A stretch of 64,000 nucleotides of DNA from Methanomassiliicoccales archaeon (lineage in GTDB: Archaea > Thermoplasmatota > Thermoplasmata > Methanomassiliicoccales > UBA472): assembly GCA_028682915.1 (NCBI GenBank), contig JAJRAN010000055.1:318-64317 (forward strand), in the 5' to 3' direction. The notes under the pieces are model-generated. The model searched no databases, was not told the DNA's origin, and was given only the letters and a program-made list of their open reading frames with translations. The position numbers were made by a program, and so were the translations under genes. Shown piece after piece: positions 4,903 through 64,000 of this stretch. Numbering within the stretch: the first letter of the stretch is position 1; every line of letters begins with the position of its first letter.

Positions 4903-6084
4903 ATGGAGCTCATTTCCATAGGCCTGCTATCACCGATAGTAGGCATGATCGGAGTAGGCATGGGCATATACGTCTATATGCAGAGCCCAGGCTTTCCAAC
5001 CGCCCGGGTCTTTCTTGGCGCCATGTGGTTGTTCTTCTTTGGTGCGTTCTTGGACTTCATTTTAATCTACGCTCCTGGCTACGAGTCCGCCTTATGGATT
5101 GCCAGGGCTGAGCTTTTCGTGATCATTCTGCTCTTTGCGAGCATATTGTACCTGGCGTCATTCCTTCCGCACGAACGATTCAGTGGTTGGTTCCGAGGCA
5201 AGGAGTTCATGCTTGCGATCATCGCTGTCCTTTCCGCCACGATTGCGGTGATGCCGGTGGACCAGGTAGTGTACACCCCGTCTGGCTGGGGAGTACACGG
5301 ATCCACGGCCTTCCTCATCTGGACGGCCGTCGTAATGGGGTACATCATCGTCACCATCTACATGGTGCACACGACATGCAAGGGAGTCAAGTGGGAAAGA
5401 ACCAAGAAGCAGAGCCAGCTGATCTCCTTAGGGGTCATCTCACCTGTGCTCTACGCTTTTATTTTGAGCATACTCGAGGAGGAGGTGGTCGACATGCCCT
5501 CAATACTCTCACCAGGGTTCCTGGCCTTGGCCTGCGTCTTCGCCTATGGCATCATGCGCTACCGCTTGTTCCTGCCCTCAGCGGTGAGCGAGACGGACAT
5601 CAAGGGGGTCAAACGCCGCGATAAGGAGATGGCAGAGTCGGCCAAGTTCCTGATGGTGGAGGAAAAGAGGCCCGAGCGCTCCTATCGCCTTTTCCTCGGC
5701 CTCCTGGCCAATGGAAAGCATGGCCTGGTCATAACCAGATCTCACCCAGACCTCTTGCGCGAAGAGTATCGGATCGAGAAGACCCCGGTTCTGTGGCTAG
5801 CAAAGCAACCCGGCCCCAATCGAATCGAGCCTGCCAACCTGTCCATTCTGCAGCAGATCGTTACCGAGTTCATGAAGAAGGGCCTGAATGCAGCGGTGAT
5901 CATAGACAGTCTGGAGTACATCATGGAGAACAACCCACCCGAAGAGGTGATGATGATGCTCTATGACATCAGGGATGAGATCCAGGTCACCAATTCGACT
6001 CTGGTCCTCTCGGTGGACCCTGAGACCATGGACCCTCAATACGTAGCCCTGCTAGAGAGGGAATTCCAGGTGCTGGTGGCATAA
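4903..6084 (+). CDS. Multi-pass membrane protein with C-terminal DUF835 (KaiC/RecA-like, P-loop-less) domain
   Basis: 393 aa. About 7 hydrophobic helices in the first ~220 aa. The C-terminus (HGLVITRSHPDLLREEY...VLWLAK...AAVIIDSLEYIM...LVLSVDPETMD) is typical of archaeal DUF835. Confidence 0.75.
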   Translation: MELISIGLLSPIVGMIGVGMGIYVYMQSPGFPTARVFLGAMWLFFFGAFLDFILIYAPGYESALWIARAELFVIILLFASILYLASFLPHERFSGWFRGKEFMLAIIAVLSATIAVMPVDQVVYTPSGWGVHGSTAFLIWTAVVMGYIIVTIYMVHTTCKGVKWERTKKQSQLISLGVISPVLYAFILSILEEEVVDMPSILSPGFLALACVFAYGIMRYRLFLPSAVSETDIKGVKRRDKEMAESAKFLMVEEKRPERSYRLFLGLLANGKHGLVITRSHPDLLREEYRIEKTPVLWLAKQPGPNRIEPANLSILQQIVTEFMKKGLNAAVIIDSLEYIMENNPPEEVMMMLYDIRDEIQVTNSTLVLSVDPETMDPQYVALLEREFQVLVA

Positions 6085-48196: not shown

Positions 48197-48373
48197 TTAT
48201 TTCTTCGTGGCGTCAGCGGTCTTGCGGGGCCGAGAGCAGATGGCGTAAAGGTCACCATCGAAAAAGACGTCTAGGTCGGGGTTCTCGGCCTGTATCTCCT
48301 GTATCTTGCGCAGGACCTCCCTTAGGGTCATGTCGCCATCCTTGCTAATCTTGACATGAACCTTGGTCTCCAT
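48197..48373 (-). CDS. Hypothetical 58-aa protein
   Basis: METKVHVKISKDGDMTLREVLRKIQEIQAENPDLDVFFDGDLYAICSRPRK..., with GAGGAGTG upstream. The track's 123-aa version extends into the AT-rich promoter region. Confidence 0.35.
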   Translation of the reverse strand: METKVHVKISKDGDMTLREVLRKIQEIQAENPDLDVFFDGDLYAICSRPRKTADATKK

Positions 48374-48607: not shown

Positions 48608-50557
48608 GTGTTAGGGTTGGGAATCTCCAGAAAGGCAGCACATGCCAAGAAGGATGGGACAATGGCGGCCATAGCCGTCGAGAAGCCCGACCCAGCCTCC
48701 ACCAATGATGATTTTGACAAGTCCAAGGAAGACGATCTCCGACGTTGGCTCACGGGCGAGGAGGACAATCTGCTCACCTGGCTCAACGAAGGAGACCGCG
48801 GAGAGACCGAGACCCTCACCCAGGTCGCACATGACTTGGGAGACGACGATGTTCGCGATAAGACCGAGAAAAGCGGCAAGGAGCTCGCCGAACTCAAGCT
48901 TGCAGTGATTGAATTGCTGCGCCGAGGGCAACCCGCGGATGCCGTCAAGGACGAAAGCGTTCCCGCCCTCTCAAGGAGACTGCGGGAGATATCAGAGCAC
49001 GAATCCGGATCACGTTCAGAACTGGACCGTCTTCTACGCAACAACCAGGACCTCAAGAAGGAGTTCGACTCCGCCATGGCCGCCGTGCCCAAGGACCAAC
49101 GAGCCCTAATAAAGAAGCAGATCGAGCTGGCGGAAAGGGAGGCAAGGCTCCAGGCCAAGGAGAGGGAGCGCGCGGAAATGGGGGCCAACGGCAACGGTGT
49201 CGGCGCCTCGTCCATGTCCGAGCTGGAGGAGCGCTTCCAGGCCGAGCTGCGCCAGAAGGAGCTCGAGTTCCAGGAGAAGGAGAAGGACTACCGGGCCAAG
49301 GTCGAGTACCTGGCCGAGGAGCTGAAGAGGAAAAGCCTAGAGGAGCAGCAGAAGGAGGACGAGCTCAAGCTCACCAGGATGACTGGGTCCCAGGCGAACG
49401 TGGAAATGGAGATGAAGCTGAAGGACGTCCAGCTCAAGGAGAAGCGCATGCTCCTCATGGAGGAGGAGATCGCCAGGCTGAAGATAGACGTGCGCGAGCG
49501 CGACGACGAGTTGCGCAAGATCAAGGAGGTCGTGGGCTACAAGGAGCAGGAGCTCCTCCGAAGGGAGGAGGACCTAGACTACCGCGACAAGCTCATGGCC
49601 AGCGAGCGACGGAAGCTGGACGAGGCCAAGCGCGAGGTCACCAACGTTGAAGAGGTGGAGCTGAAGAAGCGCTTGGAAGAGCTGAAATCGGAGGTGCAGC
49701 GGAAGGAGGAGGAACTGATAGCCAAGGAGAAGTTCCTCAACGCCAAGAGCGAAGAGCTCCGACTGCGCGAGTCCGGGGTCATCGATGACGAGATCAAGCG
49801 CCGCGAGGAGGAGCGGGCCATCGAGTTCAACGTGGCCAAGGTCAAGACCGGCAACTCGAGGCTGGACGATCTGCTGCTGGGCGGCATACCCTTCGGTTCG
49901 AACGTGCTCATACATGGTCCGCCATTCATCGGCAAGGAGATCATGATCGATCAGTTCGTGGCCGAGGGACTGAAGAAGGGGATCCCCTGCATTTGGGTCA
50001 TCACCGACAAGACGCCTAAGGACATCCGGGAGGAGATGGCCCCGATACTCTCGGGCTACCCGGAATACGAGGGCAGAGGACTCGTCAAGTACGTTGATTC
50101 TTACTCAAGGAGCATGGGAGAGTCCGCCGACGACCCCAACGCCATCTACATCGAGGAGCCGACGGACCACGACGCCATAATGGCGGCGACGGACAAGCTG
50201 GCCAAGGAATTCAAGGAGAGCCACAGGTACTATCGCCTGGCTTTCCGCTCGGTCTCGACGCTGGTCGCCTACTCCGACCCCAACGTCGCCTTCCGCTTCC
50301 TGAGCCCGTTCTGCGGGCGGCGCAAGCGCGACGGCGCGGTGAGCATGTATGTCATAGAGAAGGGCATGCATGGCGAGCAGGAGATACAGATGCTAGGCTC
50401 AATCATGGACGGCATGGTCGACTTCAAACTGGACCAGCTAAAGAGCTATTTCTCCATCCAAGGCATATCCGACGTCCAATCGCGCTCCTACATCCGCTAC
50501 ACCGTGGGCAAGCATGGGCTCAGCATCGGATCGTTCTCGCTGGACCATATCAGGTGA
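48608..50557 (+). CDS. Long coiled-coil protein with C-terminal KaiC/RecA-like (ATPase-fold) domain carrying degenerate Walker motifs
   Basis: 649 aa. About 400 aa of E/K/R/L-rich heptad-like sequence. The KaiC-like domain spans about 49850..50554 (RLDDLLLGGIPFGSNVLIHGPPFIGKE...). The Walker A position reads GPPFIGKE (49916..49939) and the Walker B position reads RLAFRSVSTL. Start is GTG 48608 or ATG 48662. Confidence 0.75.
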   Translation: MLGLGISRKAAHAKKDGTMAAIAVEKPDPASTNDDFDKSKEDDLRRWLTGEEDNLLTWLNEGDRGETETLTQVAHDLGDDDVRDKTEKSGKELAELKLAVIELLRRGQPADAVKDESVPALSRRLREISEHESGSRSELDRLLRNNQDLKKEFDSAMAAVPKDQRALIKKQIELAEREARLQAKERERAEMGANGNGVGASSMSELEERFQAELRQKELEFQEKEKDYRAKVEYLAEELKRKSLEEQQKEDELKLTRMTGSQANVEMEMKLKDVQLKEKRMLLMEEEIARLKIDVRERDDELRKIKEVVGYKEQELLRREEDLDYRDKLMASERRKLDEAKREVTNVEEVELKKRLEELKSEVQRKEEELIAKEKFLNAKSEELRLRESGVIDDEIKRREEERAIEFNVAKVKTGNSRLDDLLLGGIPFGSNVLIHGPPFIGKEIMIDQFVAEGLKKGIPCIWVITDKTPKDIREEMAPILSGYPEYEGRGLVKYVDSYSRSMGESADDPNAIYIEEPTDHDAIMAATDKLAKEFKESHRYYRLAFRSVSTLVAYSDPNVAFRFLSPFCGRRKRDGAVSMYVIEKGMHGEQEIQMLGSIMDGMVDFKLDQLKSYFSIQGISDVQSRSYIRYTVGKHGLSIGSFSLDHIR

Positions 50558-50612: not shown

Positions 50613-51047
50613 TCAGGCGACCTCTGGCCCTCTGTAGTCCCCCGGCTTCTTGGGAGCGGGCGCTTGCTGGATGTTGATGTGCGGCATCGGGACAGGGGGC
50701 GGGAGCCTGATGTCCCTGGCGACCAGCAAGGCGGTGGGAATGCAGTTGGGGACGACGGTGTTGTGGACCAGGTTGGCCCACTCTGGAGGCATGGAGTTCT
50801 TCTTGGTCCATTCGTCGATGAGCGCGTCCACGTCTCCTGCCACCACCACTTGGCCCTCGATCTTGATGTAGCCCATGCCCACGTAGTTGGTGGTGAAGCG
50901 GTAGTCGATCACCGCGGTGGATTCGGCCCCCTTCACGATCTGGGTGACGGTGCTGTTGTGGTCCACCCTCACGTTATTTACCTTCTCCCCTGCCTTGGAG
51001 AACCTCTTCGCTTCGATGAAAGCTAACTCGAAACTTTTGACTAACAT
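50613..51047 (-). CDS. Hypothetical protein with Pro-rich C-terminal tail
   Basis: 144 aa with clean frame, directly downstream of and co-oriented with tRNA-Phe. No family confidently recognised. Confidence 0.5.
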   Translation of the reverse strand: MLVKSFELAFIEAKRFSKAGEKVNNVRVDHNSTVTQIVKGAESTAVIDYRFTTNYVGMGYIKIEGQVVVAGDVDALIDEWTKKNSMPPEWANLVHNTVVPNCIPTALLVARDIRLPPPVPMPHINIQQAPAPKKPGDYRGPEVA

Positions 51048-51116
51048 CTTCCCGCCTGCTACCGCATCATAGGGGCGGGTAATAGAAGTTTGCCGAGCAT
51101 GGTCTTAGAAATGGAG

Positions 51117-51189
51117 TGCCGCAGGCCGGACTTGAACCAGCGACTTCAAGATCTTCAGTCTTGCACTCTCCCAACTGAGTTACTGCGGC
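51117..51189 (-). tRNA. tRNA-Phe (anticodon GAA)
   Basis: Reverse complement is GCCGCAG-TA-ACTC-AGTTGGGA-GAGT-G-CAAGA-CTGAAGA-TCTTG-AAGTC-GCTGG-TTCAAGT-CCGGC-CTGCGGC-A. It has a 7-bp acceptor stem, a cloverleaf with all arms paired and a GAA anticodon. CCA is not encoded. Confidence 0.9.
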
Positions 51190-51391: not shown

Positions 51392-52354
51392 ATGCTCGAG
51401 CGCCCCAAGCGAAGCGTGTGCAAAGTTACGCAAGTCCGCCGTTTCTTGAAGCGGGACCGCGATGAGAGAGGAGTAGCATCCACGGTCGGAACGATAATGG
51501 CACTTCTTGTCTTCCTGACATTCTTGACGCTGTTCACGAATTCCTACATCCCCGTGTGGATGGTGGACAATGAAAGGACCCACATGAATACGGTCATGAA
51601 CCAGTTCGGGGAGATGAAGGGGAAGGTGGACATCCTCTCGATAAACGCCCGCATGACCGGCTCGACCGACATCAACATGTACCAGTCCATCGACCTGGGG
51701 GCGGACGGGATCCCTGTCTTCGCCTCTCCGACGGCGGGCATGATAAGTTACGCCCCTTACGGTGGCGGCAACAGCAGCGTCAGGGTGATATTCAATTACA
51801 CATTGGGCTCGAGCACGAATGTCTACCACTTTGACCAAAACGGTGGGGGCATGGTCCAGTTCTATGCTCCTAACCGGTATTATGTGCAACAGTGGGTGAC
51901 CTATGAGAATGGCGCCATCCTGGTACGCCAGACGGATGGGCAGACGATGAGGGCCTATCCAAGTATCGAGCTTAGCAAGCCCAACCCCTCCTCCCAGATC
52001 AACATGGCCTTCGAGCAGGTGGACTTCGTAGGACCGAACTCCAGCGCGGCAGGCACCTCGAACGCGGGATTGAACATCGACGTGATCTACCTCGACTCTG
52101 AGACATACACCAATGCCAACATAAGCGGGACGCTGAGCCCGATCGTCCTGGTCTTCAAGAGCCTCAATGGCCAGGCATGGTACAGCTACCTGTTCCAGTA
52201 CCTACATTCCGCCAATAACAACCTGGTGAACAACACCGACTATGTCCTATCCCCATACTCCGCCAGCACCCAGACAGTGAAGCTCGTCATCAACAACGTC
52301 AGCTCCTTCGCCTTCAGCCGCGCCATAACCCAGATCAGCGTAGAGGTATCATGA
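51392..52354 (+). CDS. Archaeal type IV pilin-like protein (class III signal peptide)
   Basis: 320 aa. KRDRDERG|VASTVGTIMALLVFLTFLTLF is the archaeal prepilin pattern: basic stretch, G, small residue, hydrophobic helix. The remainder is beta-rich with many N-x-S/T sequons. The true start may be further downstream (for example the TTG in FLKRD). Confidence 0.65.
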   Translation: MLERPKRSVCKVTQVRRFLKRDRDERGVASTVGTIMALLVFLTFLTLFTNSYIPVWMVDNERTHMNTVMNQFGEMKGKVDILSINARMTGSTDINMYQSIDLGADGIPVFASPTAGMISYAPYGGGNSSVRVIFNYTLGSSTNVYHFDQNGGGMVQFYAPNRYYVQQWVTYENGAILVRQTDGQTMRAYPSIELSKPNPSSQINMAFEQVDFVGPNSSAAGTSNAGLNIDVIYLDSETYTNANISGTLSPIVLVFKSLNGQAWYSYLFQYLHSANNNLVNNTDYVLSPYSASTQTVKLVINNVSSFAFSRAITQISVEVS

Positions 52355-52367
52355 TGGAGGCGCTAGC

Positions 52368-54113
52368 ATGAAGCGGATCAAGAAGGACACGGGGGCCGGG
52401 GCCTCTCAGACCGATACGATCGCGCCTGAGGTGGAGGACACCAAGTCCCACCGTATCCGCGACTCCTATGTCAAGTTCCTACGGAAGTTCTCCTCGAAAG
52501 GGAGCATAGTGCGGCTTCCAGCCGGCCAGATCCAGGAGAGGATCGAGTGGTCCAAGGGGAAGGGCTCGGGAATCACCGAGATCCCCAAGATCGAGAACCC
52601 GAACATCGAGATCGTAGACCTGTACCCCGTCTTCGAGCCCTACAGCTACATCCGCGTCACCTTCAACAGCGAGAACTCCGAGTACGTCCTGGAGACGCTG
52701 GAACCACGGCTGAACGAGGAGGAAGGAAAGCTCCTTCGCCTGGTCAAGGACACGCTGGAGCGGACTCTGGGCTATGAGTGGCAGAAGCTCACCACCTTCG
52801 ACAAGGACCGTTACCTTCGCGAGGCGGTGGATTCCTTCTTCGAGACCCGCGGCATGCGGGTGGACCAGATATCCAAGAAGAAGATAGGCTACTTCATCAT
52901 CCGCGATTTCGTCGGCTACGGGCCCATCGACCCGCTCATGCGCGATGAGAACGTGGAGGACGTGTCCTGCGATGGGGTCGACGTGCCTTTGTTCCTGTTC
53001 CATCGCAAATACGAGAGCATCAGGACCCAGCTGAGGTTCGAGGACGAGGAGTCGCTGAACTCGTTCGTGGTCGCCCTGGCGCAACGCTGCGGGAAACAGA
53101 TATCGGTGTCCAGCCCCATCCTCGACGGCACCACCCCGGAAGGGCACCGCGTCCAGGCCACCTACTCGCGCGAGGTCACCACCCGGGGAGGCACGTTCAC
53201 CATCCGCAGGTTCAAGGAGAAGCCCTTCACGCCTGTGGACCTGATCAAGTTCGGCACCGCCAGCCCCGAGATGGTCGCCTACCTTTGGATAGGCGTCGAG
53301 CACGGCGAGTCCGCCATCATCGCCGGAGGCACGGCCTCGGGCAAGACGGCCACGCTGAACTCCATCGCGCTCTTCATACCGCCCGGGGCGAAGATCGTCA
53401 CCATGGAGGACACCCGCGAGATCAACCTTCCCCACGAGAACTGGATCCCGGGCACGACCCGGTCCGGGGTAGGGGAGAAGGAGGCGAGCGGCAAGTCCGC
53501 GGGCGAGATAGATATGTATGACCTTGTCCGGGCGGCGCTGAGGCAACGCCCCAACTACATCATCGTCGGCGAGGTCAGAGGCAAGGAGACCTACATCATG
53601 TTCCAGGCAATGGCCACCGGCCATACCACCTACTCGACCATGCACGCCGACTCGGTGAAGAGCATGGTGAACAGATTGGAGAACCCGCCCATCAACTGCC
53701 CCAGGATACTGCTCACCGCTCTGCGCAACGTCATGATCCAGACCCACGTCCGGGTCGGCACGGACCTGGTCAGGCGGATCAAGCAGGTCATCGAGATCGT
53801 GGGCTTCGAGCCGGAGACCAACGAGCTCATAACCAACACCGTCTACGAATGGGACCAGGCCACGGACAAGTTCCTCTACAAGGGGCACTCGTTCCTGTTC
53901 GACAAGATCATGGAGATGAAATCTCTCACCCACGAACAGATGATGACCGAGTTCGACCGAAGGGTGGACATCGTGCGCTACATGGTCTACAAGGACATAA
54001 CCGATCACCGCAAGATCTGGTCGCTGATCAACAATTACTACAAGGAGCCGGACAAGACCGTGGAACGCGTCCGCAACGAAATGAGGGAAGGAGGTTTGGA
54101 AGTTGCCGCCTGA
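52368..54113 (+). CDS. Type II/IV secretion system ATPase, archaeal FlaI/PilB-like (copy 1)
   Basis: 581 aa. Walker A GGTASGKTATLN, Asp box IVTMEDTREINL, Walker B RQRPNYIIVGEVRGKE, His box TGHTTYSTMHA. GGAGG RBS upstream. Confidence 0.9.
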   Translation: MKRIKKDTGAGASQTDTIAPEVEDTKSHRIRDSYVKFLRKFSSKGSIVRLPAGQIQERIEWSKGKGSGITEIPKIENPNIEIVDLYPVFEPYSYIRVTFNSENSEYVLETLEPRLNEEEGKLLRLVKDTLERTLGYEWQKLTTFDKDRYLREAVDSFFETRGMRVDQISKKKIGYFIIRDFVGYGPIDPLMRDENVEDVSCDGVDVPLFLFHRKYESIRTQLRFEDEESLNSFVVALAQRCGKQISVSSPILDGTTPEGHRVQATYSREVTTRGGTFTIRRFKEKPFTPVDLIKFGTASPEMVAYLWIGVEHGESAIIAGGTASGKTATLNSIALFIPPGAKIVTMEDTREINLPHENWIPGTTRSGVGEKEASGKSAGEIDMYDLVRAALRQRPNYIIVGEVRGKETYIMFQAMATGHTTYSTMHADSVKSMVNRLENPPINCPRILLTALRNVMIQTHVRVGTDLVRRIKQVIEIVGFEPETNELITNTVYEWDQATDKFLYKGHSFLFDKIMEMKSLTHEQMMTEFDRRVDIVRYMVYKDITDHRKIWSLINNYYKEPDKTVERVRNEMREGGLEVAA

Positions 54114-55140
54114 GGTCTCTGACATCTTCGCGAGGCTGGAGTCGTCCAAGAAGCAGTACATGAAGACCGGTGCCCAGGACGAAGCCTCCAGGATGGGGCC
54201 GCATCTGGTCCGATTGTCGGAGGGGGCGGTGCCGGAGTACGTCAAGCTCACCAAATACCAGCAGTTCTGCTGGCGAACCATGGGCAAGGCGGCGAAGGTC
54301 CGCTCCAAACCCAACCCCAAGCTGGAACTCTCCCTTCTCCAGGCCCACATGCGCATGCGGCCCGAGGAGTTCACCGCCTACGTTTGGATGACGACCGTCA
54401 TCCTCGCCATCATCTCGGTCGCGATCGCCATCACCTTGGGCGCCACCCTGGTCGCGTTCCTGGGACTGGATGTCTCGCTCACGCTGCTGGTCACCATCCT
54501 GATCGCGGTAGTCCCGCCCATGATGGGATACGCCCTGCTGACCTCCCAACCGGGGAGCAAGGCCAAGGCCCGCGCCCGGGACATCGACAAGCGCATCGGC
54601 CCGGCCATGAGCTTCATCTCGGCCATGGCCTCGGCGGACGTCAACGTGGACGTCATCTTTAAGGAGCTCTCCCGCCAGGAAATCTATGGCGAGATAAAGA
54701 ACGAGGCGGAGTGGATCACGCGCGACACCGAGCTGCTGGGGATCGATATACTTACCGCAGTGAGCAAGGCTGCGCAGCGCACCCCGTCCTCCAAGTTCCA
54801 AGAGTTCCTGCAGGGCGTGGTCACCACCTCCACCTCCGGCGGACAGCTCAAGCCGTATTTCCTGCAGAAGGCGGAGCAGTTCGAGAAGGAGGGAAAGCTG
54901 GACATGCGCCAGCAGCTGGAGAGCCTCGGCCTCTTGGCCGAGTCGTTCGTGACCGTCGTCGTCGCCTTCCCCCTGTTCCTGATCGTCATCATGGCCATCA
55001 TGGCCATCGTGCCAGGAGGGGGCGGTAGTGGGCAATTCACCGTTCTACTGCTCTGGATGGTGGTGCTGCTCATGGTGCCCATCGCCCAGTTCGGATTCAT
55101 ATTCATCATATGGAACTCCACCAAGGAGGCCGCAATGTAG
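54103..55140 (+). CDS. T2SSF-domain platform protein, FlaJ/PilC N-half-like (TadB/C-like)
   Basis: 345 aa. TTG start with a GGAGGT RBS, overlapping the ATPase gene by 11 nt. One cytoplasmic T2SSF-type helical domain flanked by TM helices. Confidence 0.8.
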   Translation: MPPEVSDIFARLESSKKQYMKTGAQDEASRMGPHLVRLSEGAVPEYVKLTKYQQFCWRTMGKAAKVRSKPNPKLELSLLQAHMRMRPEEFTAYVWMTTVILAIISVAIAITLGATLVAFLGLDVSLTLLVTILIAVVPPMMGYALLTSQPGSKAKARARDIDKRIGPAMSFISAMASADVNVDVIFKELSRQEIYGEIKNEAEWITRDTELLGIDILTAVSKAAQRTPSSKFQEFLQGVVTTSTSGGQLKPYFLQKAEQFEKEGKLDMRQQLESLGLLAESFVTVVVAFPLFLIVIMAIMAIVPGGGGSGQFTVLLLWMVVLLMVPIAQFGFIFIIWNSTKEAAM

Positions 55141-55148
55141 GTGTTGCC

Positions 55149-56057
55149 ATGGCAAAGAAAGAAGAAATACTGGACATAAAAGAGATAACAAAGAGGAAGC
55201 AGGATCACAGCAAGCTCCTCCTATACATCGGCATCACCGTGGCCGCCATCCTATTCGCCATAGGCGCCCTGGACGCCATCGGGGGCATCTCGACCGGTCT
55301 GCTGTGGATCGACTACGTCGCCTTGGGCCTGATGGCGATATGTGGACCCTACGGGTTCTACCAGACGCGCAAGTACAAGCGGATTAAGGAGATCGAGTCC
55401 CGCCTCCCCGACTTCCTGCGCGATGTGGCCGAGGCTGGCAGGTTCGGCATGACCTTGGCCGAGGCAGTGAAGGTCGCCTCCCGCGGCCGCTACGGCGGCC
55501 TCACCCCCGAGATCCGGCGCATGGCTGCGCAGATCGACTGGGGCGTACCAGCGGCAGAGGCCATGCGCCTCTTCGCCGAGAGGGTAGACACCCCGCTGAC
55601 CAACAGGATGATGTCCATCATCATCAAGGCCAACGACGCGGGCGGGAACGTGGCGGACGTGCTCACCATGGTCGCGCACGATGCCAGGGAGGTGATGCTC
55701 TCCGAGGAGGAGCGCAAGATCTCCATGGCCACCTATACCGTGGTCATCTACGTGGCTTTCATGGTCTTCATCGCCACCATCTTCATCCTAAACTCGACCT
55801 TCCTTCCCAAGATGGAGGAGGCGGGCGCGTCGGTGGCCGAGGGCGCCGAGGCGGCGGGCATCGACACTAGTTCCATTGCCACCATCCAGGTCGACGTCAT
55901 CCCCACGATCCAGCTGATATTCGTCGTATCCGTCGTGATCCACGCCTTCGGCGATGGTATCTTGGCGGGCGTGCTGCAAGACGGCAAGATAGCCAACGGC
56001 ATGAGGCACAGCTTCATCATGCTCTTGATAGGCTTGATCGGAACGAGGTTGCTCTAG
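55149..56057 (+). CDS. T2SSF-domain platform protein, FlaJ/PilC C-half-like (TadB/C-like)
   Basis: 302 aa from ATG 55149 (track start is 55110). LPDFLRDVAEAGRFGMTLAEAV...IDWGVPAAEAMRLFAERV is a T2SSF domain, with about 5 TM helices. Confidence 0.8.
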   Translation: MAKKEEILDIKEITKRKQDHSKLLLYIGITVAAILFAIGALDAIGGISTGLLWIDYVALGLMAICGPYGFYQTRKYKRIKEIESRLPDFLRDVAEAGRFGMTLAEAVKVASRGRYGGLTPEIRRMAAQIDWGVPAAEAMRLFAERVDTPLTNRMMSIIIKANDAGGNVADVLTMVAHDAREVMLSEEERKISMATYTVVIYVAFMVFIATIFILNSTFLPKMEEAGASVAEGAEAAGIDTSSIATIQVDVIPTIQLIFVVSVVIHAFGDGILAGVLQDGKIANGMRHSFIMLLIGLIGTRLL

Positions 56058-56068
56058 GGGTGACCAAA

Positions 56069-57748
56069 ATGGCGACCACCAGCGAACCCGAACCCTCCCC
56101 GGAGCCCTTCCAGGAGGAGGCTAAGGGCGGAGGCTTGACCAGCAGCTACCTGAAGCTCCTGATGAAGATCAAGGCCAAGCCGATGAAAGTGCGGGTGCCC
56201 ATGAGGTCGGACTCCGGGCAGGCCGCGATAATAACCGAGGTGCCACGGATAGACGATGCCACCATCGACGAGGTGGAGGTGACCAAGATAATTCCCCCCT
56301 ACACCTTCGTCCGCATCAAGTACGACAACGCCGCCTCCGAGTACCTCTACGAGGTCATCGAGCCGCAGCTGACCGAGGATGAGAATACCCTACTTGACGT
56401 CCTGAAGCGCGCTCTGATCCTGACGCTCAACCTCGCCGACGTGGAGAACCAGAAGGAGAAGGAGGCGGTCCTTCGCTCCGGGACGGATACGCTGATGAAG
56501 CAGATGAACGTCAGCCTGAACCCGGTATCCAAAGAGAGGATCTCGTATTTCCTAAGGCGCGACTTCATCGGCTACGGGGTCATCGACGTGATGATGACGG
56601 ACCCCAACGTCGAGGACTGCTCCTGCGACGGGGTGGGAATACCCCTGTTCATTTTCCATCGCAAGTACGGTTCCATCCGCTCCAACGTCAAGTTCGATAA
56701 GGAGATGGAACTGGATTCCTTCGTGGTCTGGCTGGCCCAGAAGTGCGGGAAGCACATCTCCGTGGCCGACCCCCTGCTGGACGCCACCATCCCGGACGGC
56801 TCCAGGCTCAACGCCACATTGGGCAAGCACGTGACCAAGAGGGGGTCGAGCTTCACCATACGCAGGTTCAAGGAGAACCCGTTCACGCCCGTCGACCTGC
56901 TCAAGTTCAAGACCATGAGCACCGACATGATGGCGTACCTGTGGACCGCCACGGAGTATGGGAGCTCCATGCTGGTTTGTGGAGGCACTGCCTCGGGCAA
57001 GACCACGACGTTGAACGCGGTCCTTCTGTTCATCCCTCCGCAGATGAAGATCGTCAGCATCGAGGACACCAGGGAGCTGAACCTCCCGCACGAGAATTGG
57101 ATCCCTTCACTCACCCGCGAGGGCTTCGGAGGCAAGAAGGCTTCTTCCTCGGGCAGCATCGACATGTTCGAGCTGCTGACCACCGCCCTGCGCCAAAGGC
57201 CCCAATACCTGATGGTCGGGGAGGTCCGTGGCAAGGAGGCGTACGTCGTCTTCCAGGCCATGGCCACCGGCAAGACCGCCTACTCGACGTTCCACGCCGA
57301 GGACGTTCAGGCGATGGTCCACAGGATGGAGAACGACCCCATCAACTTACCACGCGCGTTGATGACCGCCCTGGACATAGTGCTCCTCCAGGCCCAGGTG
57401 AAGGTCGGGACCAAGATGACCCGAAGGGTCAAGTCCCTCACCGAGATCGTGGGCATGGACCCTGAGACCGGGGAGCTCATCACCAACTCCGTCTACACCT
57501 GGAACCCGGCGGATGACACCTTCAACTACTCTGGCCACTCCTACGTCTACGAGAAGGTCCGCACCATCCGCAACTGGTCCCCCAGGGAGATGGAGAGGGA
57601 GGTCAAGCGCCGGGTGGACATCCTGGACTTCATGAAGAAGTCGGGGTTCGACAACTACCGCCAGGTCGCCAGGGTCATCTCCGCCTACTACAAGGACCCG
57701 GAGAAGGTGGGAAAGGAGATCAAGGAGAAGCTCCAGGCCATGGGCTGA
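56069..57748 (+). CDS. Type II/IV secretion system ATPase, archaeal FlaI/PilB-like (copy 2, paralog of 52368..54113)
   Basis: About 559 aa from the ATG preceded by AGGGGTGA. Walker A GGTASGKTTTLN, IVSIEDTRELNL, RQRPQYLMVGEVRGKE, TGKTAYSTFHA. Collinear with copy 1 over the whole core. Confidence 0.9.
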   Translation: MATTSEPEPSPEPFQEEAKGGGLTSSYLKLLMKIKAKPMKVRVPMRSDSGQAAIITEVPRIDDATIDEVEVTKIIPPYTFVRIKYDNAASEYLYEVIEPQLTEDENTLLDVLKRALILTLNLADVENQKEKEAVLRSGTDTLMKQMNVSLNPVSKERISYFLRRDFIGYGVIDVMMTDPNVEDCSCDGVGIPLFIFHRKYGSIRSNVKFDKEMELDSFVVWLAQKCGKHISVADPLLDATIPDGSRLNATLGKHVTKRGSSFTIRRFKENPFTPVDLLKFKTMSTDMMAYLWTATEYGSSMLVCGGTASGKTTTLNAVLLFIPPQMKIVSIEDTRELNLPHENWIPSLTREGFGGKKASSSGSIDMFELLTTALRQRPQYLMVGEVRGKEAYVVFQAMATGKTAYSTFHAEDVQAMVHRMENDPINLPRALMTALDIVLLQAQVKVGTKMTRRVKSLTEIVGMDPETGELITNSVYTWNPADDTFNYSGHSYVYEKVRTIRNWSPREMEREVKRRVDILDFMKKSGFDNYRQVARVISAYYKDPEKVGKEIKEKLQAMG

Positions 57749-58300: not shown

Positions 58301-61300
58301 CTACTGGTTCTTCGGCTCCTCGGGCGCCGGCTCCGACGGCTGCTCGCCGCCCTCCTCCTTCTTGGAGACGGCCTTCTTATCCGCGGGCCTCTTGACTATG
58401 CGCCTGGTGGGCTTGGACGGCTCGGCGGCCGTGGCGCCCGCCTCGGGCATCATGGTCTTGTCGAAGACCGTGCCGCACTTTCCGCAGATGTTGGCGCCTC
58501 TCGGGTTGGGGGTCCCGCAGACCGGGCAGGGGAACGCCGAACCGGCGGCCTTCCTCTTGTCCTCCTCCTGGGAGAGCCACTTCTCGAAGCTTATGTAGGA
58601 GGGCTGCTTCTTCCACCACTCCTGGAACTTGGCCTCGCTGTACTTCTTGCCCAACGCCTGCTTGGCCTGTTCGCGGTAGGGGTTGGCGTAGGCCTCGTAC
58701 TGCTCCCTCATCTTGCGGATGTACTCGCTCTCCTCCTCTGCCAAGGGCTCGGTCACGAACTTCGCGCCGCACTCCGGGCATTCCGAGGAGGACGCTGGTA
58801 TCCAAGCGCCGCATTGACTGCATTTCGCGGTCCCGGTCTCGAATTCCACGCCGCACTTGGGGCACTTCTTCGAGCTCTCCGGTATCAGCGCGCCGCATTC
58901 GCCGCACTCCACCAACCTGCCTAGCTGGTACTTGTACAGGTAGAAGGAGAAGGCTATGATCACCAATAGCACCACCACGATGATCAGTATCCACACCCAG
59001 ATCGGGATCTCGGTCTCGGTCGTCAAGGCCCTGACCTCGAACGGGGTGGAGTATTGAGTGACCACGCGGTCCCCAGGCATTACCTGGACCTCCATGGCAT
59101 AGTAGTTGGGCGAGGCATTCGAGGGTATCAGCCTGCTGGCCGAGTATTCGCCGTTGGAGTTGGTGTAAACGGTTACGTTGTCGCCTATCTGTGCGTTGGT
59201 CTGGGCGACGACCAGGGTGACCACGACCTTGACATTCACCAGCGGGTCGTTGGTGAGGGCGTTGGTGACCCTTCCGTACACGTACACCTCCATGTCCGGG
59301 TTGTACCATGACCTGTCAGTGCTGATGGTCGTGGCCGGCTGTGGCGGGTTGACTACGAAGTCGCGGGAGAGGGCGTTGTTGTTTTCGTTGGTCTCCTCTA
59401 TCGCGAACACCGAGTCGAGGGTGCATCTCAAGGTGTAGTTGCCGTTGGTGACGTTCACGACCCAAGGCATCTCCACCACGATGGTCTGGTTGGCATCGAG
59501 GTCGCGGGACACCGTGCCGATGTTAATCACGAAGCTGTCTGTATCGATAGCGTCGAACCTTATCTTCACGCTCATGGCAGGGGTGTAGCCATCGTTTATC
59601 ACGCTGACCCTGAGCACCAGGCTCTCACCGACCACGGCCTCGCTGACGTCGAGGCTGCCGGAGGTGACGTTCATGCCCCCGACGAACATCAGGTCGGGCC
59701 GGTTGTCGACCACGTCCGTCGTCTGGACCAGGCGATTGTTGTTGTAGTTGGTCTCGACTATGGTGCGGGCCGGGTTGACGTCTATGGTGATGGTCCTGGT
59801 CTGGATCTTGCCCCCTGCTGCCGGTAGGACGTTCCAGGTGCCATAGGCCACCACGGTCTGACCTGCGGCGATGCTCGCTATCATCTGGGTATCGAACAGG
59901 TTGCCGGTTCCGACCGCGCCCTCCCAGAAGTTCACGACCACGTTGGCAGCGCCGGTCTGGCCGATATTGGTTATGGCGGCGTTGACGGAAACCTGGTCAT
60001 TGATGTATATGGCTGTGGACGGTGTGAAGGTCACGCCGGACGGTGTCAGGTCTGCGTAGTTGAGCACGGTCACCGGCAGAGTGACGTTGTTGTTGCTTGT
60101 CGTGTGCTCTGATATCGGGGGGACCCCGACGTTCACCTTTATCAGCAGGTTGTGGTTGCCGGGTATGTTAGGCACCCATGTGAGGCTAGCGGTCCCGGTC
60201 CCACCAAGCGCTGGGATGGTTGAGATTATCCTGTACCCGAGCAGCACCTGGGACCCGCTGGGCTTGATGTCCACGAAGGAGACGTTGACGTTGTTGGCGG
60301 CGATGTCCCCGCTGTTGTGCACGATCAAGGTCACCGACGCGGTGCTGTTGGTCGTCGGGGTTGTTGGGACCACCGTGACGTCAGAGGTGGACACATAGAG
60401 CTCGGCGATGCCCCGGACGGTGATCAGCGTCCAATTGGTGTTATCGTTCTCATTCAGCTCCTTGATAGCGTTCTCCGGGTCAACGATCACGGATATGTTG
60501 TGTTGCCCCAACGGATAGGATGCTTGCCAAACGGCCTTCACGGTCGCCGTCGCCCCTGGTGCGATCTTTTCCACCATGACGTCGGCAATGGTCGTGCTTC
60601 CATCCTTGAACCTCACCAGGACGCTGTTGGCATCCACGACACCGCTGTTCCTCACGTAGGTGGTCAGGGTGACGTTATCCTCCCTGTATGGATTGCTGTT
60701 CGACGCATACAATGGCGGATCGAGGTCAGGCAGCGCTCCTGGTATGCTTAGGGTGCGCGAGGCGATCTCATCGATCAATGGCTCGCTGTAAGCCGGCAAA
60801 GATACCGACATAGGCGAGATGGTCTGATAGGCCACGCCTCCGTACCAATAGCTGGCGTTGATGCGGTAATTGCCTAGGAAGTTGTTGTTGCTAGCATCGA
60901 TCCTATCGCAGAGCGCTGCGAACAACGCCTTTCCGTTGGCGCCAGTCTTCATCGTGCCGAAGAGAGTCCCATTCAGATAGTATCTCATTTGGACGACGGT
61001 GTTCGGGATCGGGTATCTGTTGCCGTCCTGTACCAGCACCTCGACCCAGCAGAAGTTGTATACAACCGCTCCTTCAATCGGGCGGAGCGCTGGTATTGTG
61101 ACTCCGTAGAGGTAGGCACGTGCGCTGCCTCCGAATGAACTCCAAGCGGTCTGGAATGTGGTGTTGTAGGCCTTCAGGGTCGCAAGGGACCCGCTTGGAG
61201 CGACGATGTCCGAGCCGATGGTGGAATTCTTAAGGACCAACGCGGAACTGTCCGCGAGGCTGATCCTGACGGCCGAGTAGATGGTGGAAGAGTCGACGGT

Positions 61301-64000
61301 TATCTTGGCGCTTCCAGAGGCGTAGATCCAGATAGCCCTAGTCGAGCTTAGCGTTGCCGCCGACATATCCAACGCGCCGTTGTCCTGGACGAATATCTGG
61401 AACTCGTAGTCGTAGGCCTGGTTGATCGTCAGCCCCGCGTCTTGCAACTTCAGGGTGCCGCTATCGGTTATGATTATGCGGCCGCGATGGGTGAAGGACG
61501 TTCCTTCGAGCGTCACCACGTTCGTTCCGTCGATGATCAGGTCCCAGCCACTGAGGGGCACGACCCCGTTCAAAGCTATCGTGATCTGGGGATCGTTGAT
61601 CGTCAGTGGGTTTGAATAAGGCTGCAATGAGACTGGGGTGTTGTCCGCGTAGTAGTTCGTGCCAATGAACGAATAGGTGCAGTTCAGTAGATATGTTCCA
61701 TAGTAGACCGAGCCGCCTGCGCTGATGATGTCGCACAGAGCATCGAAGCTAACCTTACCAGAGATGTCGGAGGTCGCTGTCCTGACTACCGTACCGTTCA
61801 CGTACCACCTGAGCTGGACCGATGCACCAGCGATGACGTTGTTGGCATCGTCGGTAACGGTCACATCGATGGTCCGGTAATGATAGATCCTAGCGGTCTC
61901 TTTCGCGCTCATCGAAGGGATGGAGACGCTGTACATCATTGCCCTGGCATTTCCTCCGAATGACGAAAGGGCCTTGCTGAAGCTAGAGTCCCTCGCGGTC
62001 AGAGACGCGGAGGAACTGGTCGGCGCCACGATTTCGGCTCCAATCGACGAGGTATCGATGCTCAAGGAGCTAGTACCGTCCAATTTGATGTTGACCTGCT
62101 CGGATAGCACTGAGTCGTTCACCCATACCTTTGCACCTTCGTTGAGGTACATCCAGACGGAATTGCTTGAGGTCAGCGTGGCATCCTCGAGGATTATCCT
62201 GCCATTATCCATCACGTAGACCTGGAATTGGTTGTCGTAGTCTTGGTCGATGGTGAATATGGCGTTCTCGATCTTCAGCGTACCTTGGTCCATTACGATT
62301 ATTCGTCCGCGATGGTTGAAGTTGGTCCCGCTGTAGACCAAAACGTTGTTGTCGTCGACCACCAGATCGGTGCTTTGAATCGCCAGGTCAACGACAATCG
62401 ACCTGCTTGCCAGGTTGTTGCTGTACGAATATTCTTGCGGGCTCCTCTCCTTGTTCACATAGACGTAGATGTTGTAGGTCCCGATGTCGGTCGGCGTCCA
62501 TACGAACGTGGTGGTATTGGCCGTCGCTTGAGCGATGTTCATCATCGTGGAGCCTATTAACTGCCCACTTGTCGTCGGGTCCCCGATGTAGAAGGAGACG
62601 GTGACATTCACCGCATCGGCCCTCCCAAGGATGTTCGAGACCACGACGGTGGTCGTTACTGGAGACCCAGAGTAGGCGGGCTGTGGCACGAAGCTGATGT
62701 CGCCGGTGACCACCGAGAGCTCTGGTAGGTTGGCAAGAACATTGACCTGTAGAGACCTGTCGTTGTTGTTCTCGTTGCCCTCCTGTATGGCATTCTTGGG
62801 GTCCGCCTTGGCGGCAAATGTATGCAATCCGGCCGGGGTCGCCGTCCAAGTGAATTGCACCTCGACGGTCGAGCCAGGCCCAACGAATGCGACTGTCTGC
62901 TCAGAGGTCCAGCCGCTCATTGAGTCGGTCACGTTGATCACGACGTTCGTGGCCCCGGTCAGAGCCTGGTTGCGAACGAAGACCGATATGACGGCTGAAT
63001 CCCCGACATAGATTATTGCTGGGTTTACAGACATCGAGCTTATCAGAAGATCTGGCTTGTCCAGATAGAGCCCGGGCATGCTGAAATTGACCAGTTGGGT
63101 TTGGTTTTCCTGAGAGATGTCAGGATAGACATCGAAGGCGACAGTGCCTGTTCCAGTGAACAGGATATTGCTCACATTCGTGTACTCATAACTAAGAGAG
63201 TAACCCAAGAGCGCCTGCATGTTCGGCTGCTGGCTGGTGGAGTTCAGGAGCTCGGAGAGAAGGGGCAGCCTCACAGAGCCGGAGTCGTTGGTCATCATGT
63301 AGTCTGCCGAGCTCTTTCCGAGATAGCTGAGCACATCGCTTGGCGGAACCGCTTGAATTCCAGTTGAGGTGTAATAATAGGCGGCAGCTCCACCTGCCAA
63401 TAGGCTCGCGTTTACGTATGCGCCGCCAACCGGTAGTCCCTGCTGGTCGACCGCACTCACATCAGCCCATCTATAAACGTAAACAGCCGGTCCAGTTTGA
63501 ATAATAACTGAGATTTTATCGAACTGAACTGATTGTGTCCGTGGGTTCTGGAATTTAATCTTGAGACTGTTCAACGCGGTAATGTCTTTCACACCAGCGC
63601 TGTATAAATCAAAATTGAATGTGTCTGGGGTGGCACCATTATAATATGGCTGAATTGAAGTATTTTGCAGAGCACTCCATGAAGATCCCCATTGAACATA
63701 TGGCCCCGCTACATACCCTAATGCAGTTCTGACAGACACACGAAGGGTCGCGCTTGTGATTGGTCCTGTCAGTTCTCCAACGTTGAAGTTCTCAATAGCC
63801 AACACTTGGTTCAGGCCCACAGTATAATATGAACCATCTACAGATCTAAGACTGGAAATCGGGGCGCCAGTGGTATCGATTGCGTTCTTTGTGACTGGAA
63901 CCACACTCTCCGAAATACCGCTGATGAAATAGGCGGGGACCCTGTCTACCGCCGCGGTTTCCTCTGCGGTGTCGGCGTATACGCCATATAGATATGCTTT
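58301..64000 (-). CDS. Giant surface protein (more than 1,899 aa, 5'-partial): CARDB arrays, duplicated beta-helix-like module, one TM helix, cytoplasmic triple zinc-ribbon tail
   Basis: The track gives 1867 aa from GTG 63904. I translated 63905..64000 in frame (KAYLYGVYADTAEETAAVDRVPAYFISGISES) and found no stop, so the ORF is open to the window edge. At least six CARDB-like units are present (PDL/AEL...V.V.N.G...A..V.V). The TM helix IPIWVWILIIVVVLLVIIAFSFYLY is at 58934..59008. Three CxxC-x10-CxxC ribbons are at 58475..58906. N-x-S/T sequons are numerous. Confidence 0.85.
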   Translation of the reverse strand, partial: KAYLYGVYADTAEETAAVDRVPAYFISGISESVVPVTKNAIDTTGAPISSLRSVDGSYYTVGLNQVLAIENFNVGELTGPITSATLRVSVRTALGYVAGPYVQWGSSWSALQNTSIQPYYNGATPDTFNFDLYSAGVKDITALNSLKIKFQNPRTQSVQFDKISVIIQTGPAVYVYRWADVSAVDQQGLPVGGAYVNASLLAGGAAAYYYTSTGIQAVPPSDVLSYLGKSSADYMMTNDSGSVRLPLLSELLNSTSQQPNMQALLGYSLSYEYTNVSNILFTGTGTVAFDVYPDISQENQTQLVNFSMPGLYLDKPDLLISSMSVNPAIIYVGDSAVISVFVRNQALTGATNVVINVTDSMSGWTSEQTVAFVGPGSTVEVQFTWTATPAGLHTFAAKADPKNAIQEGNENNNDRSLQVNVLANLPELSVVTGDISFVPQPAYSGSPVTTTVVVSNILGRADAVNVTVSFYIGDPTTSGQLIGSTMMNIAQATANTTTFVWTPTDIGTYNIYVYVNKERSPQEYSYSNNLASRSIVVDLAIQSTDLVVDDNNVLVYSGTNFNHRGRIIVMDQGTLKIENAIFTIDQDYDNQFQVYVMDNGRIILEDATLTSSNSVWMYLNEGAKVWVNDSVLSEQVNIKLDGTSSLSIDTSSIGAEIVAPTSSSASLTARDSSFSKALSSFGGNARAMMYSVSIPSMSAKETARIYHYRTIDVTVTDDANNVIAGASVQLRWYVNGTVVRTATSDISGKVSFDALCDIISAGGSVYYGTYLLNCTYSFIGTNYYADNTPVSLQPYSNPLTINDPQITIALNGVVPLSGWDLIIDGTNVVTLEGTSFTHRGRIIITDSGTLKLQDAGLTINQAYDYEFQIFVQDNGALDMSAATLSSTRAIWIYASGSAKITVDSSTIYSAVRISLADSSALVLKNSTIGSDIVAPSGSLATLKAYNTTFQTAWSSFGGSARAYLYGVTIPALRPIEGAVVYNFCWVEVLVQDGNRYPIPNTVVQMRYYLNGTLFGTMKTGANGKALFAALCDRIDASNNNFLGNYRINASYWYGGVAYQTISPMSVSLPAYSEPLIDEIASRTLSIPGALPDLDPPLYASNSNPYREDNVTLTTYVRNSGVVDANSVLVRFKDGSTTIADVMVEKIAPGATATVKAVWQASYPLGQHNISVIVDPENAIKELNENDNTNWTLITVRGIAELYVSTSDVTVVPTTPTTNSTASVTLIVHNSGDIAANNVNVSFVDIKPSGSQVLLGYRIISTIPALGGTGTASLTWVPNIPGNHNLLIKVNVGVPPISEHTTSNNNVTLPVTVLNYADLTPSGVTFTPSTAIYINDQVSVNAAITNIGQTGAANVVVNFWEGAVGTGNLFDTQMIASIAAGQTVVAYGTWNVLPAAGGKIQTRTITIDVNPARTIVETNYNNNRLVQTTDVVDNRPDLMFVGGMNVTSGSLDVSEAVVGESLVLRVSVINDGYTPAMSVKIRFDAIDTDSFVINIGTVSRDLDANQTIVVEMPWVVNVTNGNYTLRCTLDSVFAIEETNENNNALSRDFVVNPPQPATTISTDRSWYNPDMEVYVYGRVTNALTNDPLVNVKVVVTLVVAQTNAQIGDNVTVYTNSNGEYSASRLIPSNASPNYYAMEVQVMPGDRVVTQYSTPFEVRALTTETEIPIWVWILIIVVVLLVIIAFSFYLYKYQLGRLVECGECGALIPESSKKCPKCGVEFETGTAKCSQCGAWIPASSSECPECGAKFVTEPLAEEESEYIRKMREQYEAYANPYREQAKQALGKKYSEAKFQEWWKKQPSYISFEKWLSQEEDKRKAAGSAFPCPVCGTPNPRGANICGKCGTVFDKTMMPEAGATAAEPSKPTRRIVKRPADKKAVSKKEEGGEQPSEPAPEEPKNQ
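60776..62368 (-). repeat. Intragenic tandem duplication of a ~255-aa module inside the giant surface protein
   Basis: Copy 1 covers aa 513-767 (61604..62368) and copy 2 covers aa 788-1043 (60776..61543). They are collinear: DLVVDDNNVLVYSGTNFNHRGRIIVMDQGTLKIENA.../DLIIDGTNVVTLEGTSFTHRGRIIITDSGTLKLQDA... through ...SFGGNARAMMYSVSIP/SFGGSARAYLYGVTIP to ...SLQPYSNPL/SLPAYSEPL. Confidence 0.8.

Follow-up and report, generated by a model that had tools for sequence, protein, structure and literature searches.

What does a KaiC-type domain do once its catalytic residues have been exchanged, and what can be made of one that caps a long helical rod and is encoded close to a type IV pilus-like operon? 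This question is raised by a gene in a stretch of 64,000 nucleotides (referred to as the window) from a Methanomassiliicoccales archaeon (assembly GCA_028682915.1, contig JAJRAN010000055.1, positions 318 to 64,317), of which the product, here called CC-iKaiC, consists of a segmented coiled-coil stalk followed by a KaiC/RecA-fold domain (the iKaiC domain). A preliminary description, made from the sequence of the window alone, regarded this protein as a pseudo-ATPase scaffold for which an accessory role in the nearby filament machine was conceivable. Following the results below, it seems that CC-iKaiC is a cytoplasmic, non-catalytic scaffold or adaptor built on an inactivated KaiC-fold domain, a reading to which we would assign a probability of roughly 60%. 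The scaffold part of the earlier proposal has gained strength, since three catalytic positions are replaced, the replacements are fixed in 79 orthologues, the C-terminal domain is far better conserved than the stalk, and no match to SMC or GrpE was obtained.

The KaiC family is thought to provide major regulatory hubs in archaea, and almost none of its members beyond ArlH, CirA and GvpD has a known role. CC-iKaiC is conserved in no fewer than 80 species-level lineages, which belong to the Methanomassiliicoccales and related Thermoplasmata, groups that comprise human-gut and wetland methanogens among others.

The C-terminal KaiC-fold domain

A KaiC/RecA-like domain of ~235 residues had been claimed for the C-terminus, and such a domain is indeed present, extending over approximately residues 410 to 649. 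The Pfam KaiC family (PF06745) matches residues 412-611 with 64.1 bits (cut-off 26.6). An AlphaFold2 (AF2) model of the C-terminal 253 residues, made with a 54-sequence alignment, reached a predicted local distance difference test (pLDDT) score of 94.3 and a predicted template modelling (pTM) score of 0.91. Its best Foldseek match in the PDB was PH0284 (2dr3; template modelling (TM) score 0.76-0.84, E=2e-16), the CI domain of KaiC being matched as well (TM ~0.7-0.8), and when the full-length model was used the KaiC domain was the only part for which a match was returned. Two uncharacterised KaiC-like families of Pfam were also recognised, i.e. DUF7504 (PF24336, a family without known function; residues 460-605, 49.6 bits against a gathering threshold of 27) and DUF7090 (27.8 bits, above threshold). 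All matches to the KaiC-type models of NCBIfam were sub-threshold. The ArlH equivalog NF052589 of that collection scored 18.8 bits (cut-off 215) and the PRK06067 FlaH model 40.2 bits (cut-off 194), while Rad51 gave no Pfam match and the RadA/Sms model scored 18.2 bits (cut-off 403).

A scan of one genome per species with a 21-sequence alignment yielded 347 relatives. The orthologue counts given here refer to the best 80 of these, all of them from metagenome-assembled genomes of Methanomassiliicoccales or other Thermoplasmata, and the pocket and C-domain columns were derived from 79 orthologues in species-representative genomes. Median identity amounts to 68% in the C-terminal domain compared to 38% in the stalk (80 orthologues), as would be expected if a globular module under constraint is attached to a rod that evolves fast. 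In 81 of the 253 C-domain columns conservation is at least 97%, and the protein is closed by GSF[SA]LDHI[RK] in nearly all orthologues, always at the extreme end.

The catalytic pocket

Whether catalytic residues are truly missing depends on the register of the alignment, which was checked by aligning the family profile with PDB sequences and, for the P-loop, by single-sequence alignment too. The P-loop GPPFIGKE aligns on GTPGTGKT of KaiC and on GGPGTGKT of PH0284, so that it departs from the Walker A pattern GxxxxGK[ST]: Lys443 is kept, and Glu444 stands in place of the Ser/Thr that coordinates Mg. Likewise, RLAFRSVS aligns on RVVIDSIT (KaiC) and RVVVDSVT (PH0284), placing Arg547 where the Walker B pattern hhhhD has its Asp. 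The degenerate Walker A and B motifs of the preliminary description are thereby confirmed in register. A third lesion, which it did not contain, lies after strand 2, where T-D467-K468 aligns on FEE (KaiC CI) and LEE (PH0284), i.e. on the catalytic Glu-Glu pair. Judged from the profile alignment, replacements in register thus affect all three catalytic elements (Walker A Thr, catalytic Glu pair, Walker B Asp), and the idea that intact catalytic residues could be found at shifted positions is ruled out by the lack of any register shift.

The replacements are not those of a single aberrant gene. The P-loop reads GPPFxGKE or GPAYVGKE in all 79 orthologues, Lys468 and Arg547 are each conserved to at least 97%, and position 467 is either Asp or Glu; Glu444, Lys468, Arg547 and His588 are among the conserved polar residues of the pocket. 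Because the replacements are fixed across orthologues, the pocket is regarded as remodelled under purifying selection and not as decaying. Canonical Mg-dependent ATP hydrolysis has probably been lost in the iKaiC domain, as far as its residues allow this to be judged.

In the wider family (35-55% identity, n=54), the Walker A position is generally acidic (41 Glu and 6 Asp, with 3 Gln and 3 Arg) and the Walker B position is occupied by Arg (22), Asp (9) or Glu (7). The Walker B Asp is found in stand-alone forms of 241 residues and Glu in some members, while Arg is confined to the CC-iKaiC clade. One of the stand-alone relatives with the GKE-type loop and an intact Walker B Asp (P0105, locus L081, 5915..8726) closes an apparent operon, the other genes of which encode a 181-residue protein of unknown function, a Roadblock/LC7 protein and a 390-residue small-GTPase-like protein. 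Adjoining genes encode PAS histidine kinases, a response regulator and a 712-residue multi-KaiC protein. For CC-iKaiC of the window, Pfam identified no signalling input or output domain, either fused or in an operon with it.

The five peptide strings quoted in the preliminary description were all located, at residues 237, 285, 418, 437 and 543. The strand AAVIIDSLEYI, with which it had compared Walker B, is present from residue 330 in the protein encoded at 4903..6084 (+), a seven-transmembrane (HisKA_7TM-like) protein that ends in a DUF835 domain (110 bits).

The N-terminal region

An uninterrupted coiled coil of ~400 residues had been proposed for the N-terminal part, of which a helical stalk with heptad signal stands, over ~330 residues. 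It is segmented by five breaks, and ~80 residues that are not coiled coil precede it. In the full-length AF2 model a pLDDT below 50 is obtained for residues 1-48 and 50-64, a stretch that covers two short low-confidence helices within residues 38-61 (38-49 and 52-61). Eight helices with pLDDT mostly of 70-90 then span residues 64-409, those of the stalk comprising residues 80-105, 117-159, 162-192, 201-257, 260-341, 348-398 and 400-409. The breaks (106-116, 160-161, 193-200, 258-259 and 342-347) coincide with Gly/Pro positions.

The stalk is made up for 53% of Glu, Lys, Arg, Asp and Gln and for 4% of Gly and Pro. Its periodicity was assessed with a home-made heptad score (not COILS or MARCOIL), in which 28-residue windows were compared with composition-matched shuffles. 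The score exceeded the 95th shuffle percentile for windows starting at residues 120, 267-302, 323 and 351-358 (~residues 120-147 and 267-385), with maxima of 5.6 versus a 99th percentile of 4.65, and was weaker elsewhere, including residues 148-266. Long helices thus go together with a heptad periodicity beyond composition-matched chance, as in a coiled coil. Neither SMC, GrpE nor any other family was matched by the N-terminal part in Pfam (SMC_N, AAA_23 and Rad50 included), nor did Foldseek match it to a solved structure, which leaves the protein outside the SMC/Rad50 group and means that the homology to a known family by which the earlier reading could have fallen did not materialise.

Ahead of the stalk lies an acidic double-Trp motif with the consensus L-x-x-W-L-x-G-E-E-D-x-L-x-x-W-L, which is found in 73 of the 80 orthologues; its W, L and W show no variation in alignment A5. 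It likely takes the form of a pair of short amphipathic helices that meet at the Gly, and we propose that it is a partner-docking motif. When the window and 88 loci were translated in all six frames, no copy turned up outside CC-iKaiC itself.

Two architectural classes

Full orthologue reading frames in the 80 genomes range from 574 to 896 residues and fall into two classes. In class S (the window protein and 39 other loci; 575-710 residues), a single copy of the double-Trp motif is present and no other N-terminal domain. In class L (32-34 loci; 785-900 residues), a CxxC...CxxC zinc ribbon, an (HhH)2 domain and two motif copies, ~40 residues apart, precede the coiled coil and the iKaiC domain. 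The ribbon and the (HhH)2 domain are found in 32 of the 80 orthologues; the Pfam HHH_5 model (cut-off 27) matched the seven class L N-termini scanned with 29.5-61.6 bits, and six of them with 42.7-61.6 bits. Pfam detected no HHH match in the N-terminus of the window protein, the ribbon and (HhH)2 domain are also absent from the 39 class S orthologues, and a separately encoded copy of this module was found neither in the window nor in the class S loci. In more distant relatives, the GKE-type domain is preceded by an N-terminal coiled coil of 100-170 residues.

No long hydrophobic run is apparent on reading the sequence of the window protein, and the N-termini of 18 class L orthologues (first 300 residues) contain no signal peptide or transmembrane segment, the highest Kyte-Doolittle value of any 19-residue window being below 0.9. 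PADLOC gave no match to a defence system.

Gene structure and genomic neighbourhood

The coordinates of the gene, its parts and its neighbours are collected in Table 1. The open reading frame (ORF) from which the preliminary description started does exist, and its start can be narrowed down. A TTG at 48617 is an alternative to the GTG, the N-termini of orthologues align from 'LGISRK...' onwards, and the orthologue of locus L013 begins there with an ATG. An internal ATG (residue 19) is disfavoured by the orthologue alignment and by the position of a TATA-box-like element, which leaves the GTG or TTG at 48608-48617. Going by its sequence and location, this element (ATATTTTAATA) probably is an archaeal promoter belonging to the CC-iKaiC gene itself.

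Table 1. Features of the CC-iKaiC gene and its surroundings (positions in the window; residues of CC-iKaiC)
Feature	Position	Strand	Residues	Basis
TATA-box-like element ATATTTTAATA, ~45-58 nt upstream of the CC-iKaiC start codon	48550..48562	+		direct sequence reading
CC-iKaiC gene, complete ORF, GTG start, class S architecture	48608..50557	+	649 aa	ORF calling
Variable N-terminus, predicted to be disordered	48608..48718	+	1-37	AF2 pLDDT ~30, no secondary structure; poor orthologue conservation
Acidic double-Trp motif LRRWLTGEEDNLLTWL	48737..48784	+	44-59	orthologue alignment
Segmented alpha-helical/coiled-coil stalk	48845..49834	+	80-409	AF2, composition, heptad score
KaiC/RecA-fold domain (iKaiC)	49835..50554	+	410-649	Pfam, AF2, Foldseek
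P-loop GPPFIGKE	49916..49939	+	437-444	profile alignment
Asp-Lys aligned with the catalytic Glu-Glu pair of KaiC	50006..50011	+	467-468	profile alignment
Walker B strand RLAFRSVS	50234..50257	+	543-550	profile alignment
C-terminal tail GSFSLDHIR	50528..50554	+	641-649	strong conservation
Divergent small ORF, 58 aa, METKVHVKISKDG... (a 123-aa ORF call over-extends)	48197..48373	-		
144-aa orphan ORF, convergent with the CC-iKaiC gene	50613..51047	-		conservation
tRNA-Phe (GAA), between the 144-aa ORF and the pilus operon	51116..51189	-		
Type IV pilus-like operon, starting ~0.8 kb downstream of the CC-iKaiC gene	51392..57748	+		Pfam/NCBIfam

The pilus-like operon encodes a 320-residue pilin-like protein (with a class III signal-peptide-like N-terminus and no Pfam match), two FlaI-like ATPases of 581 and 562 residues and two half-size T2SSF proteins. 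As it has a TATA-like element of its own, separate from that of the CC-iKaiC gene, and as the 144-residue ORF on the opposite strand and the tRNA-Phe gene lie in between, the CC-iKaiC gene falls outside the operon. In previous work (Makarova et al. 2016, PMC4858521), secretion ATPases were reported to be missing from three 'Themoplasmatales' species, and Methanomassiliicoccus was noted in that connection to be non-motile. Convergent with the operon, at 58301..63904 (-), lies a gene of which the position is kept in 45 loci and the product, of 1867 residues, contains six CARDB repeats, CarboxypepD_reg domains and, at the C-terminus, double zinc ribbons.

Linkage to the pilus genes was counted in those 60 loci for which 4 kb or more of downstream sequence is available, with PurM, RlmE and DUF531 as control genes. 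Pilus genes follow the CC-iKaiC gene in 51 of these loci (35/35 in class S, 16/25 in class L). Upstream, however, the unrelated PurM is kept at 31/31 class S and 17/23 class L loci, and RlmE at 30/31 and 16/23, respectively. Since the pilus genes are conserved at this place no better than PurM and RlmE, their adjacency carries no more weight than general synteny. In addition, nine class L loci retain the CC-iKaiC gene and the 144-residue ORF without the pilus genes, and in four of the pilus-less loci Pfam identified TiaS, an aminotransferase, enolase, a short-chain dehydrogenase and a beta-helix protein downstream. Within 8 kb of five relatives at 39-55% identity, neither pilus genes nor homologues of the two small neighbours described below were found. 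With a separate transcription unit and unlinked distant relatives on top of this background synteny, the accessory role in a filament machine that had been considered conceivable is unsupported. In these highly syntenic genomes, adjacency to a pilus operon should not by itself be taken for a functional link.

Two small genes are the only neighbours that are linked more tightly than background. The 144-residue orphan is the tightest-linked of all, being positioned tail-to-tail with the CC-iKaiC gene in 78 of the 80 loci and in all 60 loci with enough flank. It ends in a conserved C-terminal ...EVA tail and has no match in Pfam, NCBIfam, the PDB or PADLOC; its homologues, all annotated as 'hypothetical protein', occur in Methanomassiliicoccales/Thermoplasmata, i.e. 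over the same taxonomic range as CC-iKaiC. A SecB-like identity was considered for it and rejected (hhalign probability 0.3%, no PDB or Pfam match). The other, divergently encoded small protein has ~56-58 residues, as only the C-terminal ~55 residues of the longer ORF call are conserved (median identity 69%, 66 of the 80 loci). Its consensus is MEKxVHVKxDxxxDxTLREVLxKIxEIQxxxPxLDVFFDGDxYAICSRPRK, for which neither a family nor a structure match was obtained.

Repair or replication genes do not consistently adjoin the orthologue loci. The upstream gene of class L loci looked like a candidate for an informative neighbour and was discarded, proving to encode an unrelated HdrA/MvhD-type oxidoreductase. 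In locus L040 (5604..8021, minus strand), and likewise in L041, L049 and L073, this is a protein of ~800 residues combining an HdrA-like flavoprotein with an MvhD/FlpD domain, encoded head-to-head upstream of CC-iKaiC. Class S loci have deoxyhypusine synthase at the place of this fusion.

Proposed role and alternative explanations

If CC-iKaiC is indeed a scaffold or adaptor, its remodelled pocket may still be in use, either as a structural salt-bridge network (e.g. through a contact between Glu444 and Arg547 that would fill the Mg site) or as a site where a phosphate-bearing ligand would be bound without turnover. The iKaiC domain would then act as an oligomerisation and docking module, like KaiC-family domains, while the segmented stalk of ~330 residues would dimerise or bundle the chains and serve as a spacer. 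At the far end, LxxWLxGEEDxLxxWL would recruit a partner via its Leu/Trp face. In the orthologues of sister Thermoplasmata, a zinc ribbon, an (HhH)2 domain and another copy of the motif are present in addition at this place, which suggests that the far end is a modular cargo-binding head. To go by the gene order, the neighbouring pilus operon is possibly one candidate client.

Some points count against this reading. Strict conservation extends to Lys443 and the whole glycine-rich loop; this would not be expected of a purely structural relic and leaves room for nucleotide binding or even an unconventional activity. The full-length model, in which the protein was treated as a monomer, has a pTM of 0.48. 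A 44-column profile of the double-Trp motif retrieved a single 66-residue fragment and nothing else from 5.8 billion proteins, and no partner of the motif was identified.

Of the other explanations, it is unlikely that CC-iKaiC belongs to the adjacent type IV pilus-like machine as a subunit with an accessory or regulatory function. The iKaiC ring would in that case dock under the FlaI-like hexamers as ArlH does under ArlI, with the coil resembling ArlX or ArlCDE in function, or the protein would regulate the locus in the manner in which CirA regulates the arl genes. The proximity of the pilus genes, present behind every class S orthologue with enough flank, fits with this, as does a locus without an ArlH of its own (by Pfam and NCBIfam); KaiC-family ATPases recur near archaeal type IV pilus loci (PMC4858521), and CirA, a motility regulator transcribed separately beside the arl genes, provides a precedent (PMC10983859). 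Yet the separate transcription unit behind an opposite-strand ORF and a tRNA gene, the equally good conservation of PurM and RlmE, the nine class L loci in which pilus genes are missing (with housekeeping or unrelated genes downstream in the four checked), their absence near relatives at 39-55% identity and the ArlH score far below its cut-off all argue against it. Moreover, ArlH reportedly interacts with ArlI in a nucleotide-dependent manner, whereas the pocket of CC-iKaiC is rewired. Rather improbable, in turn, is a DNA-associated tether or recombination-mediator-like protein, in which an inactive module in the style of a RadA paralogue is combined with a coil and a DNA-binding head, class S having lost the head and relying on a partner bound through the Trp motif. 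In RadA/Rad51 the RecA core follows a domain of the same type as that found, together with the ribbon, in 32 of the 80 orthologues, and the profile matches (63.8 bits) the Sulfolobus KaiC-like protein SSO2452 (2w0m), which has been described as a RadA paralogue. Rad51 paralogues often carry degenerate Walker motifs and act as mediators. Nevertheless, the window protein and 39 class S orthologues lack ribbon and HhH domain and have no separate copy nearby, repair and replication genes are not consistently adjacent, the C-terminal domain fits KaiC models and not those of Rad51/RadA, and (HhH)2 domains can also mediate protein contacts.

It is quite improbable that CC-iKaiC is an active NTPase or autokinase with unconventional chemistry, in which Glu444 would hold the metal and Lys468 and Arg547 would be catalytic or transition-state residues, the protein then being a signalling switch of the KaiC type. 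The strict conservation of GxxxxGK, Glu444, Lys468, Arg547, His588 and further polar pocket residues over 79 species would be accounted for, stand-alone relatives do pair a Walker A Glu/Asp with an intact Walker B Asp/Glu, and one stand-alone form is encoded in a signalling-type operon (Roadblock/LC7, small GTPase, PAS histidine kinases, multi-KaiC). On the other hand, all three canonical catalytic elements have changed at once in the orthologous group, the Mg ion would be repelled by an Arg standing where Walker B has its Asp, and we know of no precedent for such chemistry in the KaiC family. A bolder reading, which we consider a long shot, would make CC-iKaiC a new kind of cytoplasmic tether in which an inactivated KaiC ring, its Mg site filled by Arg and Glu, carries long coiled-coil arms that catch cargo at their tips and couples this cargo to the neighbouring two-ATPase pilus-like machine. 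In class L the cargo would be DNA, held by the zinc ribbon and (HhH)2 domain, and in class S an adaptor captured by the Trp motif. If this were true, ArlH-like and ArlX-like roles would be fused with a DNA-handling head, for example in a coupling factor for DNA uptake or export or in a positioning scaffold of an archaeal pilus. The scaffold or adaptor on an inactivated KaiC-fold domain remains the reading that we prefer. With its invariant pocket, its division into ring module, stalk and docking motif, and the natural contrast between lineages with and without the head, CC-iKaiC lends itself well to finding out what a dead KaiC domain does.

Comparison with known systems

The closest structural counterparts are the single-domain archaeal KaiC-like ATPases PH0284 (2dr3), PH0186 (2zts) and SSO2452 (2w0m), which have the fold in common with CC-iKaiC over ~240 residues (TM 0.76-0.84) and share the N-terminal 'RLDDLLGGG-P-G' segment and a glycine-rich loop with Lys. 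In these ATPases, which lack a long N-terminal extension, GK[TS], the Glu-Glu pair and the Asp of Walker B are all retained, whereas CC-iKaiC has E444, D467-K468 and R547, as well as an N-terminal region of 410 residues.

ArlH (FlaH) resembles CC-iKaiC in its KaiC fold and in its genomic association with a FlaI-type ATPase and a T2SSF-type platform. However, ArlH is a protein of ~230 residues with functional Walker motifs, the gene of which is part of the arl operon, and is said to bind ArlI in a nucleotide-dependent manner, while CC-iKaiC has a sub-threshold ArlH hidden Markov model score, a transcription unit of its own and a rewired pocket, and hence cannot be classified as an ArlH. The genetic arrangement is closer to that of CirA of Haloferax volcanii, a KaiC-like protein that is transcribed separately beside the arl genes and controls motility (PMC10983859), thus being a regulator and not a part of the motor. 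CirA differs from CC-iKaiC in keeping the Walker A and B motifs and the catalytic glutamates and in having no coiled-coil stalk.

With RadA/Rad51, class L shares the order of an N-terminal (HhH)2 domain followed by a RecA-fold core. RadA, however, is an active ATPase in which a short linker with a polymerisation motif connects the two, compared to ~500 residues of motif repeats and coiled coil ahead of an inactive KaiC-like core in class L, and in the window protein the HhH domain is absent altogether. A KaiC ring that is combined with a coiled coil for higher-order assembly and long-range regulation is known from Rhodobacter sphaeroides (PMC10076222), where the coil is C-terminal and of ~50 residues and the protein is an active double-domain KaiC, in contrast to the N-terminal stalk of ~330 residues and the single inactive domain of CC-iKaiC. 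A precedent for a dead-domain adaptor near a type IV pilus is FrzS of Myxococcus xanthus (PMC1974792), in which a receiver domain without phospho-acceptor is joined to a long coiled coil; it differs in being bacterial, in having a receiver fold rather than a RecA/KaiC fold, and in the reversed order of its domains.

Finally, archaeal signalling proteins are known to contain inactivated KaiC-like domains, which are recognised as a class of their own, iKaiC (PMC5847659, with reference to Makarova et al. 2017). As far as they are represented in that citing paper, these are KaiC-superfamily domains minus the catalytic residues, joined to other modules and proposed to act as non-enzymatic hubs, in all of which they resemble CC-iKaiC. 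The examples described there are fused to REC, PAS, HalOD1 etc., whereas in CC-iKaiC the domain is combined with a long coiled coil and a Trp motif, to which the zinc ribbon and (HhH)2 domain are added in sister lineages. Measured against the iKaiC survey in the form in which the citing paper conveys it, the architecture, the invariant rewiring of the pocket to Glu/Asp-Lys/Arg, the Trp motif and the dichotomy between class S and class L appear to be new.

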